IMG/VR virus record: IMGVR_UViG_2585427782_000007
DNA length: 14,205 nucleotides
Origin: a virus
Taxonomy: Duplodnaviria; Heunggongvirae; Uroviricota; Caudoviricetes
Strand: one strand, 5' to 3'
Positions 1 through 12,322 of the stretch are shown here, piece after piece; within the stretch, counting starts at the first letter, position 1, and the number at the start of each line of letters is the position of its first letter. Position numbers and translations under genes: made by a program. The notes under the pieces are model-generated. The model worked only from the letters and a program-made list of their open reading frames with translations. It was not told the origin of the DNA and did not search any database.

Positions 1-504
1 CTTAAGCTCCGGATACATGGCGTTAACTTCTGGCATTTTCATCAACGCTTCAACGATATGTCCGTCGAATGTTGCCATGTCTTCCTGCAACAATTCCTGT
101 GCGCTAATAACCATATCAACGGTGATGTTTTCACATGTGTCGAACTTAACCATGACAGCGTTCTGTACTTCAGGGGCCAGCTTGTCAAAAGTGACGTTCA
201 TCGGATCGGATTCAGTCTCAACCGGGACAAAAGAAGCAGACTCCTCATCCCAGCGGTTTTCCTGCATATATTCAGCATCCCATGAATCGAGGGCAGGGCG
301 GGGTATGCCAGGTTTATCCTCGCAGACAATAAATTTATAAGCGCAGTCCTGAGCAGCCGGATAATGTTCCAGGAATTGCCAGTGAAATTTTGCTCGAGCA
401 CGGCGTTCGTCGCCAGCTTCAATGGCTGTGGCTACAGCCACAGCGCCTTCTTCCCTTGTTGCCAGTTCGTCAGGAATAGCGGCGCAAATAAAGACTTTAC
501 TCAT
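1..504 (-). CDS. Hypothetical prophage protein, N-terminal 168 codons; gene runs off the 5' edge of the window. By position downstream of dicB-ydfD it corresponds to ydfE of Qin.
   Basis: Minus-strand ATG at 502-504 with GAGG about 9 nt upstream; frame open for all 168 codons to position 1 (MSKVFICAAIPDELATREEGAVAVATAIEAGDERRARAKFHWQFLEHYP...). Not in the ORF table because no stop lies inside the window. Confidence 0.55.
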   Translation of the reverse strand, partial: MSKVFICAAIPDELATREEGAVAVATAIEAGDERRARAKFHWQFLEHYPAAQDCAYKFIVCEDKPGIPRPALDSWDAEYMQENRWDEESASFVPVETESDPMNVTFDKLAPEVQNAVMVKFDTCENITVDMVISAQELLQEDMATFDGHIVEALMKMPEVNAMYPELK

Positions 505-596
505 TTGTTTTAACCTCATGACAGATTTAAGGATGAACAAATCCCTGCCATTGCTGGCATATAAGAATGAAACCGGATATTTATTACGGAACTGTT

Positions 597-788
597 TTAA
601 AGACCTGCCGGGATTTCGATATTATCCTGGTGAATAACTTTATCGACCGGGTAACAGTTACCGGGAATTTTCTGTTCGGTTGCTGCAGTCATACACTCCT
701 GCATTGTCCTGTGAACACTGACTGCAATATCAACTGGCTCTCCGGAAACAAGAAAAACTGTCAGAACAAGCACAAATGCTGAATTCAT
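597..788 (-). CDS. ydfD: YdfD-like 63-aa protein with N-terminal hydrophobic segment (Qin prophage lysis protein)
   Basis: Internal Met of table ORF 597..842 gives MNSAFVLVLTVFLVSGEPVDIAVSVHRTMQECMTAATEQKIPGNCYPVDKVIHQDNIEIPAGL (63 aa). Its ATG overlaps the dicB stop as ATGA (plus-strand tcat at 785-788). Length and position match K-12 ydfD from memory. Confidence 0.6.
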   Translation of the reverse strand: MNSAFVLVLTVFLVSGEPVDIAVSVHRTMQECMTAATEQKIPGNCYPVDKVIHQDNIEIPAGL

Positions 789-973
789 TGTGCACATCCT
801 TTTGGCATCAGACGTAAACGAGCCAGCATTGAAACAATGCATATTTTATTTAATAGCTCCCGTTCTTGTTTTCTCTTGTTAATGGCATCTTCAGTAAATA
901 CTGGGTTACTGATAGTGACACCAATTTCAAAACAACCTTCAGACGTATTAACGTTTGGTAATAACGTTTTCAT
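785..973 (-). CDS. dicB: DicB cell-division inhibitor (62 aa)
   Basis: C-terminal 62 codons of table ORF 785..1180: MKTLLPNVNTSEGCFEIGVTISNPVFTEDAINKRKQERELLNKICIVSMLARLRLMPKGCAQ, with SD GAGGA upstream of ATG at 971-973. The upstream in-frame extension is H-rich and non-protein-like. Confidence 0.7.
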   Translation of the reverse strand: MKTLLPNVNTSEGCFEIGVTISNPVFTEDAINKRKQERELLNKICIVSMLARLRLMPKGCAQ

Positions 974-1202
974 TATCGCGTCCTCAACAATGAATTTTGT
1001 GATGCAGTGCCTGGTGCCTCCAGGTGACGTTAACCAGTTAACAATTAACGCCGGATACGAACAGGCAGCCAGTGATGATGGCGAGATCATGCGACCAAAA
1101 GAGCCTACGCGGTGGAAGTGCTGCTGATGTCGAATCCTAGCGTGATGACTATGAAGCGGGAAAAACTCCGGTCGAAGCATATTGTGATGAGTGGGGCGAT
1201 GA

Positions 1203-1490
1203 ATGAGCGAGATTAATTATCAGGAAGGGCATGAAACGGCGGGGCAAGCAAAACCAGTGGCATGGCGATATCGCTACGTGAAAAAAGGCGTTACGGACTT
1301 TCAGGGGAAGTAGTGGTCTGGTGACTGGAAATATGTACCGAAAAAAGAGGATTGTAACGACAGGCCGAACTATCAAATTCAGGCCTTATTCACTGCCTCA
1401 CCAGTCCCAGTTACATCAGAAGAACTGGTTAAAGCTGTGCACTTTTATGAACAACTAAAACGCGAAAATCCACCAACATCCGGCAACTAG
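1203..1490 (+). pseudogene. 95-codon ORF interrupted by a single in-frame TAG at 1311-1313 (candidate nonsense pseudogene)
   Basis: ATG 1203 gives MSEINYQEGHETAGQAKPVAWRYRYVKKGVTDFQGK, then TAG, then the same frame continues WSGDWKYVPKKEDCNDRPNYQIQALFTASPVPVTSEELVKAVHFYEQLKRENPPTSGN to stop at 1488-1490. Both halves look protein-like and there is no start codon after the TAG. Confidence 0.3.
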
Positions 1491-1744
1491 ATTAATGGAT
1501 TAACTATGTCGGTTAAACGACCAGCCAACTGAAAAAGCGGAAACCTGATTACAGGTTGCCAGATAAGGCAATGAGCTACCTGGCGCGGAACGGACTGATA
1601 AGTATGGGGAATGTTTTACGATGAACCTTTAGACTAAAGAGTTTGTAACGCTATGTAAGTGATTTTTTCTGGTTTAGATATTTATATGTCCGGCCAAATT
1701 GAGGTGTGTTTAAATGTAATTGCACATTGATTGTAGGAGGAATA

Positions 1745-1924
1745 ATGAAAAACGCATTGCAGTTTTTGTTTGTTGCGTTCTGGTTGTTCGCATCATGTAT
1801 GCCCATCATCTTCACAGCAAGGTATATGGAAAAAGTTGATGTTTTGATATTAATATTTGGATATATAAATGCCCTTTTTTTAGGGGTGTTCATGGCGGTC
1901 ATGTGCATTGAATACTGGCGGTAA
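1745..1924 (+). CDS. Small hydrophobic protein (59 aa, predicted two transmembrane segments), function unknown
   Basis: AGGAGG at 1735-1740, 4 nt before ATG 1745. MKNALQFLFVAFWLFASCMPIIFTARYMEKVDVLILIFGYINALFLGVFMAVMCIEYWR. The table ORF 1706..1924 starts at a GTG with no usable SD. Confidence 0.45.
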   Translation: MKNALQFLFVAFWLFASCMPIIFTARYMEKVDVLILIFGYINALFLGVFMAVMCIEYWR

Positions 1925-2072
1925 ATACAGCGAACTCCATTGGTTTAGTTGGATATTTACTGTGCTGGACAAAAACGGTTTGCGGGGAAATCTTAGTTAA
2001 GTAGAATGACTGCGGGTGCTTGAGGCTATCTGCCTCGGGCATGGACACCAACGGCAGATAGAGAAAAGCCCC

Positions 2073-3921
2073 AGTTAACATTACGCGTCCTGCAAGACGC
2101 TTAACATTAATCTGAGGCCAATTTCATGCTAGACACATGTAGGTTAGCCTCTTACGTGCCGAAAGGCACGGAGAAGCAGGCTATTGTTAACACCAAGCTG
2201 TAATGTCCCCTTTGAACCATTCTAAAATGTCCCCAGACAATTCTCTGGGGGATTTTTCATGATCAAAGAGACTGTTACGATGAGTCATAAGGAACTCCAC
2301 CGACTTCAGATTATTCAGGAACAAGCTGCGGCACGCATTGGCATTTCTATTCGGCAGGTTAAACGTCTGGTGCAACGGTATAGAAATGAAGGGCCTTCTG
2401 GTCTGGTTTCCCACCGACGTGGAAAGCGTCCTAATAATTCCTTTTCTACTGAATTCAGAGCAACAGTAATTTCACTCCTCAAAGGCCGTTACGCTGATTT
2501 TGGACCTACGTTTGCGTGCGAAAAATTGCGCGAGATACACGGTTTATCTTTATCCGTTGAAACTCTCAGAAAGTGGATGATAGAAGAGGGGTTATGGCGT
2601 GAACGCCGTCGTAAAATTGCCCGTATATATCAACGCCGCATGCGACGACCATCTTACGGTGAACTGATCCAGATTGATGGCTCACCTCATGACTGGTTTG
2701 AAAATCGAGGCCCCAGATGTACACTGATCGTTTTCATTGATGATGCCACCAGTGCGTTGATGGCGTTGCGTTTTGTGCCTGCTGAAACAACCCGGGCTTA
2801 CATGGAAACCCTCCGGGGTTACCTTAATGATCATGGCGTACCGCTCGCTCTCTACTCTGATAGACACAGTATATTCAGGGTAAATAACCCAGAGCGGGAA
2901 GGTGAGCTGACCCAGTTCACTCGTGCGATAAAGACACTGGGCATCGAGCCAATCCATGCCAACAGCCCGCAGGCAAAAGGGCGGGTAGAGCGCGCCAATC
3001 AGACACTACAGGACAGGCTGGTCAAAGAAATGCGGCTTCAGAATATCAGTGATATTGAAACAGCAAATGCATGGTTGCCGACCTTTATTGAAGCCTATAA
3101 CAACCGGTTCGCTACGTCGCCTCGTACTACTGATAATGCTCATCTTGATGTGCACCATTCTGAAGAGGAACTGGGTTATATCTTCAGCCTACAGGCGAAG
3201 CGCGTTCTGTCTAAAAATCTCACTTTCCAGTACAAAAGCAGTGCGTTTCAGGTACGCAGTGAGGGCCGGGGATATCGACTTAGGCATTCGGTTGTTACTG
3301 TATGCGAGAACTTTGACGGTGAAATTAACGTTCTGTATGACGGGAAAGCGCTGGGCTGGGAAAAGTATGTTGATGGCCCGGAGCCTATACCACTGGATGA
3401 TGAAAAGAGTGTCCATGAACGAGTGGATAATGCCCGTATTGATTTACGCTCAAAATACTATGTTAAACCTAAAGCTGACCATCCCTGGCTTACGCGCCGA
3501 ACGCAAAGTCATCAGCAAGTTAAGCCCCCGAAGTTACCTAAAAAGAAGCCTGATCCCGATAAAAAAGATTGAAACCAAGATCGATTCGGTTGAGTGCATA
3601 TCCATTCATAGGGTAGATTCTTAAGTCGCGTTTCTGGTGTTCATTTTCGGGTGGTTTGTTACTTGTTTTACCGGGGATATGCCAGAAACGCGCTGAGTCA
3701 GTCTGGGCGGTGCGCGTAATGAGGCGTTATGGTAAATAGCCTATGCTAATGTCCGCTAAGAGCAAGAAGCGGAAGTTGGCAGTTTTGTGGACTGTCCCCA
3801 CAAAAGTGACTACAGAAATAGTTGCAATTCATAATTGATCATGGGTTGTCAGTTAAACTCGTGGCGATTTAAATAGACTAATTGGGAGTGCGTCCATTAC
3901 TTATATCTTGTAATGTTAACT
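2073..3921 (+). mobile_element. Putative insertion sequence carrying the DDE transposase; boundaries tentative
   Basis: Single transposase ORF 2259..3572 flanked by an exact 12-bp inverted pair: AGTTAACATTAC at 2073-2084 and GTAATGTTAACT at 3910-3921. No similarity beyond the 12 bp and no flanking direct repeat, so the ends are uncertain. Confidence 0.3.
2259..3572 (+). CDS. DDE-type transposase with N-terminal helix-turn-helix (retroviral-integrase-like core; IS481/ISNCY-like, family not resolved)
   Basis: 437-aa ORF. N-terminal HTH-like segment (AARIGISIRQVKRLVQRY), then candidate catalytic residues in VFIDDATS, LYSDRHSIF and GRVERANQTLQDRL. GGGGGA precedes ATG 2259. Confidence 0.85.
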   Translation: MIKETVTMSHKELHRLQIIQEQAAARIGISIRQVKRLVQRYRNEGPSGLVSHRRGKRPNNSFSTEFRATVISLLKGRYADFGPTFACEKLREIHGLSLSVETLRKWMIEEGLWRERRRKIARIYQRRMRRPSYGELIQIDGSPHDWFENRGPRCTLIVFIDDATSALMALRFVPAETTRAYMETLRGYLNDHGVPLALYSDRHSIFRVNNPEREGELTQFTRAIKTLGIEPIHANSPQAKGRVERANQTLQDRLVKEMRLQNISDIETANAWLPTFIEAYNNRFATSPRTTDNAHLDVHHSEEELGYIFSLQAKRVLSKNLTFQYKSSAFQVRSEGRGYRLRHSVVTVCENFDGEINVLYDGKALGWEKYVDGPEPIPLDDEKSVHERVDNARIDLRSKYYVKPKADHPWLTRRTQSHQQVKPPKLPKKKPDPDKKD

Positions 3922-3964
3922 ATCAGAAATGATACAAAGATAATATGTCTTTAAAGAAAAGGCT

Positions 3965-3995
3965 GATGGCGAAAAGTGGCCCGATGAGGGCCACA
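3965..3995 (-). terminator. Rho-independent terminator of flxA
   Basis: Minus strand reads GTGGCCC-TCAT-CGGGCCAC (plus 3977-3995) followed by CTTTTC just after the flxA stop at 4009. Confidence 0.5.
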
Positions 3996-4008
3996 ATACG
4001 GCTGTCAC

Positions 4009-4341
4009 TTAGACGTAAATATCAATGGTGCCAGCGGTATTTGTATCGTCTTTTTTCTCTTCTTTTTTATCAGGCTGAACTGTCGCGTCTTCATTCTTTT
4101 TCTCTGCCTGCTGCCTTAACAACTGCTCCAGTTGAGCCCAGAGGCTTTCAATTTGCTTCTGTACCAATGCAGCCATTTCTTTTTTCTGCTGTGTCGTCAT
4201 CCCCTCTTCCGATGAGATTTTCCCAAGCTTTTCAGTCAGCACCTGAATTTGTCTTGTGATTTTGGCTATTTCTGATGTTCCTTCCGGGGCGGAGTTGTTT
4301 GAAATAACGGTTGAGGTATTTCCCTGAATTGTGACAGACAT
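4009..4341 (-). CDS. flxA: FlxA (110 aa), sigma-28-dependent prophage protein
   Basis: Table ORF 4009..4341; MSVTIQGNTSTVISNNSAPEGTSEI...; SD AGGAG upstream; consensus sigma-28 promoter immediately upstream. Confidence 0.8.
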   Translation of the reverse strand: MSVTIQGNTSTVISNNSAPEGTSEIAKITRQIQVLTEKLGKISSEEGMTTQQKKEMAALVQKQIESLWAQLEQLLRQQAEKKNEDATVQPDKKEEKKDDTNTAGTIDIYV

Positions 4342-4364
4342 AGATTTCTCCTTTTAAAAAAGCA

Positions 4365-4391
4365 CTATCGGCATGCACAAAAAAATCTTTA
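4365..4391 (-). promoter_or_regulatory. Sigma-28 (FliA) promoter of flxA
   Basis: Minus strand reads TAAAGATT-N11-GCCGATAG against consensus TAAAGTTT-N11-GCCGATAA (plus 4384-4391 and 4365-4372), about 23 nt upstream of the flxA ATG. Confidence 0.6.
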
Positions 4392-4543
4392 ATCGTATTT
4401 CTTGTGTCATTAATTGTTTGATGTTCAGATTGTTTTCCTCGCGGGCTGGCGCGCCTCAGAAAGTAAAGCTTGTTGACAGGGGTAAACGTTCGGCAATAAT
4501 TTTCTGCCGCATGCGGGTGTTGCATAAAACGTGTTACGTTCCT

Positions 4544-4873: not shown

Positions 4874-5113
4874 ATGGGTAGCATTAACCTGCGTATTGAC
4901 GATGAACTTAAAGCGCGTTCTTACGCCGCGCTTGAAAAAATGGGTGTAACTCCTTCTGAAGCGCTTCGTCTCATGCTCGAGTATATCGCTGACAATGAAC
5001 GCTTGCCGTTCAAACAGACACTCCTGAGTGATGAAGATGCTGAACTTGTGGAGATAGTGAAAGAACGGCTTCGTAATCCTAAGCCAGTACGTGTGACGCT
5101 GGATGAACTCTGA
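4874..5113 (+). CDS. relB: RelB antitoxin (79 aa)
   Basis: MGSINLRIDDELKARSYAALEKMGVTPSEALRLMLEYIADNERLPFKQTLLSDEDAELVEIVKERLRNPKPVRVTLDEL, near-identical to remembered K-12 RelB. Stop overlaps relE start (TGATG). Confidence 0.95.
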   Translation: MGSINLRIDDELKARSYAALEKMGVTPSEALRLMLEYIADNERLPFKQTLLSDEDAELVEIVKERLRNPKPVRVTLDEL

Positions 5114-5400
5114 TGGCGTATTTTCTGGATTTTGACGAGCGGGCACTAAAGGAATGGCGAAAGCTGGGCTCGACGGTACGTGAACAGTTGAAAAAGAAGC
5201 TGGTTGAAGTACTTGAGTCACCCCGGATTGAAGCAAACAAGCTCCGTGGTATGCCTGATTGTTACAAGATTAAGCTCCGGTCTTCAGGCTATCGCCTTGT
5301 ATACCAGGTTATAGACGAGAAAGTTGTCGTTTTCGTGATTTCTGTTGGGAAAAGAGAACGCTCGGAAGTATATAGCGAGGCGGTCAAACGCATTCTCTGA
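5113..5400 (+). CDS. relE: RelE mRNA-interferase toxin (95 aa)
   Basis: MAYFLDFDERALKEWRKLGSTVREQLKKKLVEVLESPRIEANKLRGMPDCYKIKLRSSGYRLVYQVIDEKVVVFVISVGKRERSEVYSEAVKRIL, translationally coupled to relB. Confidence 0.95.
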   Translation: MAYFLDFDERALKEWRKLGSTVREQLKKKLVEVLESPRIEANKLRGMPDCYKIKLRSSGYRLVYQVIDEKVVVFVISVGKRERSEVYSEAVKRIL

Positions 5401-5471
5401 ACCAAAGCATGACATCTCTGTTTCGCACCGAAGGTGACACTTCTGCTTTGCGTTGACAGGAGAAGCAGGCT

Positions 5472-5627
5472 ATGAAGCAGCAAAAGGCGATGTTAATCGC
5501 CCTGATCGTCATCTGTTTAACCGTCATAGTGACGGCACTGGTAACGAGGAAAGACCTCTGCGAGGTACGAATCCGAACCGGCCAGACGGAGGTCGCTGTC
5601 TTCACAGCTTACGAACCTGAGGAGTAA
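5472..5627 (+). CDS. hokD: HokD/RelF Hok-family membrane toxin (51 aa)
   Basis: Below the table cutoff; read manually from ATG 5472: MKQQKAMLIALIVICLTVIVTALVTRKDLCEVRIRTGQTEVAVFTAYEPEE, stop TAA 5625-5627. Confidence 0.9.
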   Translation: MKQQKAMLIALIVICLTVIVTALVTRKDLCEVRIRTGQTEVAVFTAYEPEE

Positions 5628-8891: not shown

Positions 8892-9191
8892 AAAAATTCC
8901 TTAATACTGATAACTTGGCGCACTATACACACGTTCCTGAAGAAAGCTATAGTTTTTTGATGGGGTTGAAGATGGCTGGATGTCTAAAATAAACATTGCT
9001 TCATATGTTCAACTATGCGTTAATGATTGCGTCGGTTTGAAGAACAGACGATATACGAAGTAGTTTACTAAAGCAGTTCTCATTTCAGGTGTTATTCACT
9101 TATTCCTTCTTTGAGTCTCTCCAATTAAGTACGAAGTCGTTTCTGTTATGCAAACCATTTATGCCGAAAGGCTCAAGTTAAGGAATGTAGA

Positions 9192-9407
9192 ATGTCAAAT
9201 AAAATGACTGGTTTAGTAAAATGGTTTAACGCTGATAAAGGTTTCGGCTTTATTTCTCCTGTTGATGGTAGTAAAGATGTGTTTGTGCATTTTTCTGCGA
9301 TTCAGAATGATAATTATCGAACCTTATTTGAAGGTCAAAAGGTTACCTTCTCTATAGAGAGTGGTGCTAAAGGTCCTGCAGCAGCAAATGTCATCATTAC
9401 TGATTAA
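9192..9407 (+). CDS. cspB: Cold-shock protein CspB (71 aa)
   Basis: [71 protein letters not shown]; SD AAGGAA; roughly 300-bp upstream region typical of csp leaders. Confidence 0.9.
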
Positions 9408-9688
9408 AATTCATCGCTCGTCTGTATACGATAACGAAGAAGGCTGATGCCTGAGTAGAGATACGGACAGAGTAGTGAATATTGGATCTCTTTAATAAAA
9501 AGTAAGGAGGTCCAATACATGAAACAATGGCTAGCATATTTGGCAAAATCTTAATCAGGAAAAGTATGCTAACCATTGTGGTGAAGTGCAGGTTTGCTGC
9601 ATGAATAGTTTTACAGCAGAAGCTAACTGCTGGCATGGCAAAACAAAGTGCGTAAGTGGATGACTCCCACAAAAAGCACCACAATCTC

Positions 9689-9941: not shown

Positions 9942-10160
9942 AGGCTTTTCCTGTATAAATGGCCGTATACAGTACACTAAATATGAAAACATTTCTCGTA
10001 TTATTATTTTATATATGACTTTCTTTCAAAATAATTACCCACATTTTTAATGTGTATGTTTTTTTAGCGCCGTTGAGAACAACGTGTGCTGTCAAAACTA
10101 CCCCGTAGACTCCGATCTTTTCAAACATATTGCACCATCCGTGTACATCGGGGTGAGGAT

Positions 10161-10376
10161 ATGAAATCAATGGATAAGTTAACAACAGGTGTTGCCTATG
10201 GCACATCGGCGGGGAATGCTGGTTTCTGGGCATTGCAGTTACTCGATAAAGTAACTCCGTCACAGTGGGCTGCAATCGGTGTGCTGGGTAGCCTGGTTTT
10301 TGGCCTGCTGACGTATCTGACAAATCTTTATTTCAAGATTAAAGAAGACAGGCGTAAGGCTGCGAGAGGAGAGTAA
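10161..10376 (+). CDS. essQ: Class II holin / pinholin EssQ (71 aa), phage 21 S-like with dual-start motif
   Basis: ATG 10161 preceded by GGTGAGGA: [71 protein letters not shown]. Met1 and Met4 suggest an antiholin/holin pair; two TM segments. Confidence 0.85.
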
Positions 10377-10380
10377 TCCA

Positions 10381-10688
10381 ATGACTCAAGACTATGAACT
10401 GGTTGTGAAAGGAGTCCGTAATTTTGAGAATAAAGTTACGGTAACTGTAGCCTTACAGGACAAAGAACGCTTTGACGGTGAAATTTTTGACCTGGATGTC
10501 GCCATGGACCGTGTTGAAGGAGCTGCGCTGGAGTTTTATGAGGCAGCAGCCAGAAGGAGCGTCCGGCAAGTCTTCCTGGAAGTAGCAGAAAAATTGTCAG
10601 AAAAAGTTGAGTCTTATCTGCAGCATCAGTACTCCTTTAAGATTGAAAATCCTGCCAATAAGCACGAGCGTCCTCATCATAAATATCT

Positions 10689-10692
<4 letters not shown>
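10381..10692 (+). CDS. ydfR: YdfR (DUF1327-like) acidic protein of unknown function, inside the lysis cassette
   Basis: 103-aa table ORF; starts 5 nt after the essQ stop and its stop overlaps the rrrQ start (ATGA at 10689-10692). Confidence 0.85.
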
Positions 10693-11716
<1,024 letters not shown>

Positions 11717-12078
11717 GGTAATATTAAATCGGAACATTTACATCGCGGAATGTAAAATTTAAATAAAAAGGACTCTTCCATGAGCCAAAATTCCTGAAAT
11801 CTTAAGGGTAAGATAAAAGGTCTTAATCAGAATGACACGTTTTATTAATAAATAAAGCTATTCTTTCATTGCTGTGTTTTTCTTTACAAAAGTAATCCTT
11901 GCTATGGGTGGTTAATCATGCGTTAATGGTGTTCTGGTTTGTTACAAATTTATCTGAAGCAGTCATTGTTATAATTTTATTATTTGTACCTCTTGAGATT
12001 TCCTTGTTGGTTTTTCTCTCTGATATTTTTTTTCGGACCATTCTGCCCAAGGGCTAATTTCTTCAAAAGGTAATAATT

Positions 12079-12291
12079 ATGTCTAACAAAATGACTGGTT
12101 TAGTGAAATGGTTTAACCCTGAAAAAGGTTTTGGTTTCATCACGCCGAAAGATGGCAGCAAAGATGTGTTTGTCCATTTCTCAGCAATTCAGAGCAACGA
12201 TTTCAAAACATTAACTGAGAATCAGGAAGTTGAATTTGGTATTGAGAACGGACCTAAAGGTCCTGCCGCTGTTCATGTAGTGGCGCTTTGA
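12079..12291 (+). CDS. cspI: Cold-shock protein CspI (70 aa)
   Basis: [70 protein letters not shown]; about 360-bp AT-rich upstream leader. Confidence 0.9.
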
Positions 12292-12322
12292 GGTAGACAA
12301 TATTACAAACCATATTCACTTT

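Follow-up and report, generated by a model that had tools for sequence, protein, structure and literature searches.

The 59-codon open reading frame (ORF) at positions 1745–1924 of the plus strand, stop codon included, is probably a genuine gene that is transcribed with the early operon of its prophage and translated into an integral membrane protein with the shape of a helical hairpin, and it belongs to a family carried by prophages of Escherichia coli and Shigella. We use “the window” for the whole 14,205-nucleotide stretch of viral DNA analyzed here, which represents a defective E. coli prophage that is lambdoid and resembles Qin. The ORF begins with ATG at position 1745, ends with TAA at positions 1922–1924, and encodes the product MKNALQFLFVAFWLFASCMPIIFTARYMEKVDVLILIFGYINALFLGVFMAVMCIEYWR. 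Its delimitation relies on a list of open reading frames in the window and on the comparison between lineages described below. The preliminary description of this DNA had pointed to an AGGAGG sequence ahead of the ORF and to two hydrophobic helices in a 59-residue product, and both features are borne out. A perfect AGGAGG Shine–Dalgarno sequence, from which initiation is very probably efficient, lies at positions 1735–1740 (+), 4 nucleotides 5′ of the ATG, and the mRNA fold that was predicted leaves it unpaired, while Kyte–Doolittle hydropathy and an AlphaFold2 model both indicate two helices. The arrangement AGGAGG-N(3–9)-ATG occurs twice on the two strands of the 14.2-kb window against 0.52 expected occurrences, and AGGGGG replaces AGGAGG in about half of the homologous loci (A1738G, 62 of 121).

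Given that ATG-initiated ORFs of at least 59 codons arise in 12% of dinucleotide shuffles of the AT-rich segment (GC 0.36), and that hydrophobic peptides are a frequent product of T-rich DNA, neither the length of this ORF nor the hydrophobicity of its product exceeds what chance would supply. It is conservation that raises the ORF above chance. Existing annotation of the region is varied. Many older GenBank records carry a “hypothetical protein” here, often in a 72-residue form that starts at an in-frame GTG at position 1706, and RefSeq (PGAP) leaves the 59-codon ORF unannotated in every record inspected. The phage record PV340562 (PhiR42_1) instead annotates an 85-codon ORF on the opposite strand (1651–1908, minus) as a “hypothetical protein,” and the name “hornerin” is given to the region in two further phage records. 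We rejected the antisense ORF as the gene, as its frame is stopped in the distant paralogue introduced below, and its entry in PV340562 is probably a misannotation. The 72-residue form was likewise rejected, since the paralogue has no equivalent in-frame extension, its upstream sequence being out of frame or stopped. Because the Shine–Dalgarno sequence and ATG of the paralogue align with those at position 1745 and the upstream frame is closed, the true start is ATG 1745 and not GTG 1706.

The ORF product belongs to an undescribed and unnamed family of two lineages, although it is of a familiar kind, the small hydrophobic ORFan proteins of temperate phages. Searches of Pfam, NCBIfam, PHROGs, and PADLOC produced no match to the protein or to any family member (for Pfam and NCBIfam, the cut-off was E ≤ 1 for the protein, and family members were followed to E ≤ 10, where only noise appeared), and the peptide strings occur in no paper found by literature search. 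Word-indexed protein searches returned only near-identical sequences from E. coli and Shigella. An exhaustive HMMER search of 1.84 billion cluster representatives recovered a single distant relative, P0041/P0046 (MRKILMYLCISIWIVISCVPIILTSEYLTEASIMALMFGHANALCIGVFISIIYIECWR), at an E-value of 1.2e-8 library-wide and 2e-19 in pairwise comparison. This paralogue is also 59 residues long, is 41% identical and 71% similar to the window protein, aligns with it free of gaps, and has the same start and stop. It is encoded in a decayed prophage remnant within the ttcA–uspF interval, for example at positions 5001–5180 of our locus L215 (CP042246.1), where fragments of an integrase and of an ABC-3 permease are its only called neighbors. 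The locus looks like a fossil prophage at the Rac attachment site.

Among 5,426 complete E. coli genomes, 1,570 carry the window lineage and 1,045 carry the paralogue, which is unannotated in the RefSeq records listed. Neither a profile search with the two lineages nor scans of contigs from genomes, viruses, and metagenomes found a third lineage or any carrier outside E. coli and Shigella. All 14 loci of the paralogue have an intact copy, and in both lineages a Shine–Dalgarno sequence stands at proper spacing. Thus, the ORF is conserved across homologous loci, a property whose absence the preliminary description had named as grounds for discarding its reading.

Comparison of the two lineages indicates that this conservation is of the coding type. 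In codon-aligned DNA the lineages are 59% identical, and the differences distribute over the three codon positions as 25, 17, and 31, with pN = 0.34 and pS = 0.72. In 20,000 neutral simulations that used the observed substitution spectrum, the probability of encountering no stop codon was 0.037 and that of a pN/pS ratio at or below the observed value was 0.016, and no run satisfied both. Only the frame of the ORF is open in both lineages, the five other frames each being stopped in at least one of them. The between-lineage alignment z-score is 10.8 for the ORF compared to 3.2 and 4.4 for its flanks. We abandoned the argument that the ORF is free of indels where its flanks are not, because the same lenient aligner also places gaps in the ORF; the case for conservation therefore draws on the z-scores together with the protein alignment, which needs no gaps. 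Between these diverged homologues, frame, length, start, and stop are all kept and pN is well below pS. Based on these data, the ORF very likely is, or recently was, a protein-coding gene, and the comparative evidence consists of a single deep divergence between two lineages within one species complex.

The ORF resides in an AT-rich module of about 330 bp (positions 1627–1955), delimited by composition and by alignment with nine related prophages (our L002–L010), which resembles moron cargo. Its GC content of 0.36 is the lowest within the first 6 kb of the window. The module is absent from L008–L010 and from the Qin prophage of BL21(DE3), in which the end of the flanking gene and the hok leader still align. 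It thus shows two traits of a moron, namely presence or absence between otherwise collinear prophages and a deviant base composition. The ORF lies in the nin region and has the orientation of rightward early transcription. Consensus scans of both strands of positions 1400–2300 identified no promoter or terminator flanking the ORF, of the kind that lets a moron be expressed from a repressed prophage, although these scans are crude enough that the hok promoter (TTGCGG-16-TAGAAT) also went unscored. Because the gene occupies a nin position on the rightward early strand, it would be transcribed with the early operon. A 13-bp palindrome, CTTTAG-A-CTAAAG, is present at positions 1627–1639, about 105 nucleotides 5′ of the ATG. 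A counterpart, CTTCAG-T-CTGAAG, occurs at about positions 4876–4888 of the paralogue locus L215, with its arms changed in a compensating way. By its sequence, the palindrome could be an operator-like site, or it could be a chance feature at the end of an upstream gene remnant.

The surrounding prophage lacks its immunity and replication genes. The preliminary description was right that the dicA/dicC region of K-12 is missing here, and comparison with E. coli ATCC 8739 attributes this to the loss of two segments whose junctions fall at about positions 1056–1107. The first lost segment comprised ydfC-ydfB-ydfA-dicA-dicC-ydaT and part of an O-like gene, and the second comprised the remainder of the O-like gene together with genes for a DUF977 protein, a methyltransferase, and a DUF7167 protein. 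A 52-nucleotide island of the O-like gene (1056–1107) is left between the two deletion junctions. As a result of these deletions, dicB (785–973, minus strand) is situated only about 770 nucleotides from the ORF. An Rfam search of the whole window detected no DicF RNA. The arrangement seen over positions 1–4400 is common to only 49 of the 5,426 genomes, and K-12 matches only about 47% of this interval, with ydfX/ydfW retained there. The 59-codon gene itself is missing from the Qin prophages of both K-12 and BL21(DE3), and for this reason small-protein screens based on K-12 cannot have seen it at Qin. Elsewhere in the window, the prophage has two paralogous genes for cold-shock proteins, and 5′ of them lie full-length matches to the cspA thermoregulator RNA (9031–9423 and 11933–12318, both plus strand; 159 and 113 bits).

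The statement that the ORF lies next to a transposase holds in part. An ISNCY-family transposase ORF, intact and encoding 437 residues (2259–3572, plus), does lie downstream, and the same element is called an incomplete pseudogene by PGAP in ATCC 8739. However, 335 nucleotides intervene, and they contain an orphaned hok/sok leader. This element (2014–2185, plus) is a complete hok mRNA leader, with the start of mok as well as the region of the sok antisense RNA, and it matches Rfam RF01794 over its full length with 104 bits. An inserted block that begins with the ISNCY element interrupts it precisely at the start codon of hok (AT|T), such that the window has ATT rather than ATG. In intact prophages (L002–L007), hokD directly follows the ORF and hok leader. 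In the window, a 3.27-kb block that carries the ISNCY transposase, ydfW, flxA, ydfV, and relBE splits the leader from the hokD coding sequence (5472–5627), and the block is flanked by a 15-nucleotide direct repeat, GGAGAAGCAGGCTAT, at positions 2170–2184 and 5458–5472. Insertion of this block may explain why a leaderless hokD is found right behind relBE, the missing leader having survived 3.3 kb upstream. Thus, the native neighbor of the ORF is a hok/sok locus, and its adjacency to the transposase is secondary. We considered a functional link between the ORF and hok and rejected it, because hok occurs without the ORF in L008–L010 and BL21, and the paralogue occurs without hok.

Polymorphism within the window lineage gives a less constrained picture than the comparison between lineages. 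Among 121–124 viral-contig and genome loci plus 67 metagenome loci, the ORF carries 12 distinct nonsynonymous changes and one synonymous change; by sample, the ratio of synonymous to nonsynonymous changes is 0:11 in the 124 loci and 1:6 in the 67 metagenome loci. For comparison, the nonsynonymous to synonymous counts in the same loci are 16:9 for hokD, 19:15 for the DUF7167 gene, and 10:6 for a gene encoding a 58-residue hypothetical protein. Given 34 synonymous and 143 nonsynonymous sites, a binomial calculation places the probability of at most one synonymous change among 13 at about 0.26 under neutrality and at about 0.006 for omega = 0.3. Variable sites number 10 per 180 nucleotides in the ORF, a density not clearly below the 17 per 205 nucleotides of the module's noncoding flanks. 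No excess of synonymous changes exists within the window lineage, and current purifying selection is undetectable on the window copy. These counts exclude locus L013 (positions 1376–1763; CP178302.1, E. coli ECMA0423), whose module aligns at 91% identity with 19 gaps and whose ORF is disrupted by several single-base indels; this copy is either truly decayed or the product of a noisy assembly.

One possibility, which we consider unlikely, is that the ORF is a relic, once a real gene but now drifting in a cryptic, decaying Qin-like prophage and open only because its recently spread module has had little time to decay. The polymorphism ratio fits neutrality and would be improbable under appreciable constraint, and the variable-site density resembles that of the flanks. 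Module identity is 97.6–100% in all but one locus and the neighboring genes are 2–3 times more variable, a pattern that suggests recent spread of the module by recombination. Frameshifted alleles also exist on several backgrounds. The frameshifted products P0019, P0022, P0024, and P0025 come from different haplotype backgrounds and involve a T7 tract within the ORF (1875–1881, plus) that acts as a recurrent frameshift site, and one deletion of a T in this tract was observed among 121 loci. The public frameshifted variants diverge at the tract (…ALFFRGVHGGHVH and similar endings), on at least three haplotype backgrounds. These variants could be real inactivations, slippage events, or homopolymer sequencing errors. 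The loss of immunity and replication genes from the host prophage would likewise suit a relic.

Other observations fit poorly with simple decay. Of 118 loci that were sampled irrespective of protein, 115 (97%) have an intact ORF, as do all 67 full-length copies from metagenomes. Common replacements, which are A/V, V/I, I/M, and L/I, are of a conservative kind, and the variants I37M and Y40H restore residues found in the paralogue, by which the I37 and Y40 of the window protein look derived. Moreover, the counts are small, and polymorphism within a species is normally rich in slightly deleterious replacements. Finally, the gene is also found in complete nin regions beside an intact hokD. Taken together, the two scales of comparison suggest that purifying selection on this gene is old and that constraint is now relaxed or weak, as expected for cargo in decaying prophages.

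The predicted protein is strongly hydrophobic, with a GRAVY value of 1.27. Hydropathy analysis places two hydrophobic stretches at about residues 3–25 and 33–55 (codons at 1751–1819 and 1841–1909, both plus strand), separated by the sequence R-Y-M-E-K-V-D. An AlphaFold2 model based on a nine-sequence alignment likewise predicts helices at residues 2–26 and 28–58, with a mean pLDDT of 74. Between the window lineage and the paralogue, 19 residues are invariant: M1, L5, L8, W13, S17, C18, P20, I21, I22, T24, L36, F38, G39, N42, A43, L44, E56, W58, and R59. The set includes polar and small residues inside the helices as well as a C-terminal E-x-W-R sequence. The first helix contains the invariant W13, S17, C18, P20, I21, I22, and T24, and the second carries a conserved small-xxx-small face formed by G39, A43, and G47, together with the polar N42. 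Small-xxx-small patterns and Asn residues are features that promote helix–helix association in membrane proteins. A Foldseek comparison of the model with viral structures (BFVD) returned generic helical hairpins only, with a best E-value of 1.3, and sequence profiles of PDB entries gave no match for the 59-residue protein.

A variant of our preferred explanation, rather than an exclusive alternative to it, is that the product matures as a very small lipoprotein. Signal peptidase II would remove residues 1–17 at F-A-S|C18 and leave a 42-residue N-acylated peptide that helix 2 also anchors in the inner membrane. By analogy, such a peptide could work at the periplasmic face, like the small phage lipoproteins that block receptors or DNA entry. 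The putative cleavage site is a lipobox-like F-A-S-C sequence at codons 15–18 (1787–1798, plus) that ends in the invariant Cys18. A regular-expression version of the PROSITE PS51257-type rule requires K or R within the first seven residues, an uncharged h-region, and [LIVMF..]2-x-[AGS]-C with the Cys at position 15–35. Both the window protein (LFVAFWLFASC, Cys18) and the paralogue (LCISIWIVISC) agree with this rule, which shuffled versions of helix 1 match only 5–7% of the time, and S17 and C18 are invariant across lineages that share just 41% identity. However, seven hydrophobic positions continue past Cys18 (MPIIFTA in the window protein and VPIILTS in the paralogue), as they would in an ordinary 22-residue transmembrane helix. 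In addition, P20, I21, I22, and T24 are equally invariant, which argues that the conservation is not specific to a lipobox. Lipoboxes with Phe or Val at position −3 and Ile at −2, as found here, are also uncommon. We regard acylation as an unlikely elaboration of the plain hairpin, to be given about the same weight as a gene already adrift.

We judge it improbable that the protein is a membrane-damaging toxin, whether type I-like or an effector of abortive infection, that is silent in the lysogen. The preliminary description had listed toxins and holin-like proteins among the frequent roles of such ORFs, and neither label suits this one. A toxin would be small and very hydrophobic with a strong Shine–Dalgarno sequence, as this protein is, and the glycine-zipper-like G39xxxA43xxxG47 pattern and the Asn within helix 2 are features of pore-forming peptides. 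The ORF also adjoins a bona fide type I toxin locus. However, the 59-residue protein has no match in Pfam or NCBIfam to the Hok/Gef profile (PF01848) or to another toxin family. The same crude consensus scans, which covered both strands of positions 1400–2300, showed no antisense promoter, and Rfam and folding analyses in and around the ORF gave no RNA element except the neighboring hok leader, so that the one antisense RNA region recovered is sok within 2014–2185, which belongs to the adjacent hok locus. The fold of the ORF leader is not significant (z = +0.7 and −1.2) and leaves the Shine–Dalgarno sequence free, unlike the translationally locked mRNAs of type I toxins. Nor is the ORF consistently linked to hok, or hok to the ORF. 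As for a neighboring antitoxin, for which a search had been proposed, the paralogue persists intact and without a partner gene in the decayed remnants of more than 1,000 genomes, which is a poor fit to an unguarded toxin.

A holin function finds no better support. The holin–lysozyme–spanin cassette of the prophage occupies positions 10086–11716, which leaves the ORF 8 kb upstream in the early region, and the prophage has its own holin, essQ, at 10086–10376. The 59-residue protein ends in only E-Y-W-R, has a single Met start with no dual-start motif, and matches no Pfam or PHROG holin family; its matches to “holin” folds are nonsignificant (E = 4.5 and 5.9).

The least credible reading holds that the ORF is no gene at all but a spacer 5′ of the hok promoter, a shadow of the antisense 85-codon ORF, or a structured RNA, and although the 12% yield of comparable ORFs from module shuffles, the antisense entry in the PhiR42_1 record, and the silence of PGAP at this site could be cited for it, this reading appears already largely refuted by the between-lineage substitution pattern, by stops in the paralogue in every frame but +1 (the antisense frame included), by the lack of an RNA family match or significant fold, and by the coding-type conservation of frame, length, start, and stop.

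Returning to the explanation we favor, that of a translated membrane hairpin, the gene would be AT-rich cargo in the delayed-early (nin) region, positioned just 5′ of hok/sok on the rightward early strand. The product would most likely insert into the inner membrane as a hairpin of two helices whose N and C termini face the cytoplasm, joined by a seven-residue loop in the periplasm. Its conserved faces (a polar/small one of W13, S17, C18, P20, and T24 in helix 1; G39, N42, A43, and G47 in helix 2) would then mediate helix–helix contacts, and the partner may be a second copy of the protein itself or a larger membrane protein of the host or phage. By analogy with other prophage cargo, we speculate that it serves a nonlethal accessory role, such as modulation of a membrane complex or superinfection exclusion, rather than killing or lysis. 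The suggestion in the preliminary description of a modulator of membrane complexes falls within this range of candidate roles.

Among the closest parallels are prophage morons that encode small inner-membrane proteins, such as the superinfection-exclusion proteins HK97 gp15 and T4 Imm, which share with this protein a small hydrophobic product of one or two helices and an origin in AT-rich cargo that is present in some temperate phage genomes and absent from otherwise collinear ones. Phages can grow without such morons, which in many cases persist in defective prophages. The 59-residue protein differs from them in that it resembles no viral protein in sequence or fold (best BFVD hit at E = 1.3; no PHROG), and its gene has no promoter or terminator of its own detectable by a crude scan and lies in the nin region, not near tail or lysis genes. 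Hok/Gef proteins are similar in size (about 50–60 residues), hydrophobicity, and prophage location, and are encoded by the immediately adjacent locus. However, Hok is a single-helix protein with a conserved arrangement of periplasmic Cys residues, and its locus includes a mok leader ORF, a folded mRNA, and the Sok antisense RNA. The 59-residue protein, with its two helices, shares none of these traits. Class II holins and pinholins such as S21 are also phage-encoded, with about 60–70 residues and two transmembrane helices, but the ORF stands outside the lysis cassette, its product lacks a charged C-terminal tail (it ends in only E-Y-W-R), and it has no dual start.

Another set of comparisons is provided by MgrB, SafA, AcrZ, and MgtS, which are likewise shorter than 70 residues and were long missed by annotation. 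These proteins act by helix–helix contact with a larger membrane protein, and they consist of a single helix, derive from genes of the core genome or of regulons, and work with partners that have been identified. In contrast, the protein described here has two helices, is borne by prophages, and is absent from the Qin prophages of K-12 and BL21. A more adventurous proposal, to which we assign a somewhat lower chance than to acylation by itself, is that this is a domesticated prophage microprotein, possibly an acylated mini-lipoprotein with a second anchor, which would be kept as the sole intact frame in decayed remnants across a large share of E. coli genomes, would have escaped small-protein research because the Qin prophages of K-12 and BL21(DE3) lack it, and would either guard the host, for instance against the entry of DNA from related phages, or tune a host membrane complex.

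If the ORF is translated, then current RefSeq annotation omits a conserved small membrane protein, and one more prophage ORFan family joins the candidate modulators and exclusion factors. The practical consequence is small, amounting to a corrected annotation and a gene worth including in screens for function, with no new principle involved. With one lineage in active-looking prophages and the other in a fossil remnant, the family would nonetheless offer a clean test case for asking why such genes outlive the phages that carried them.
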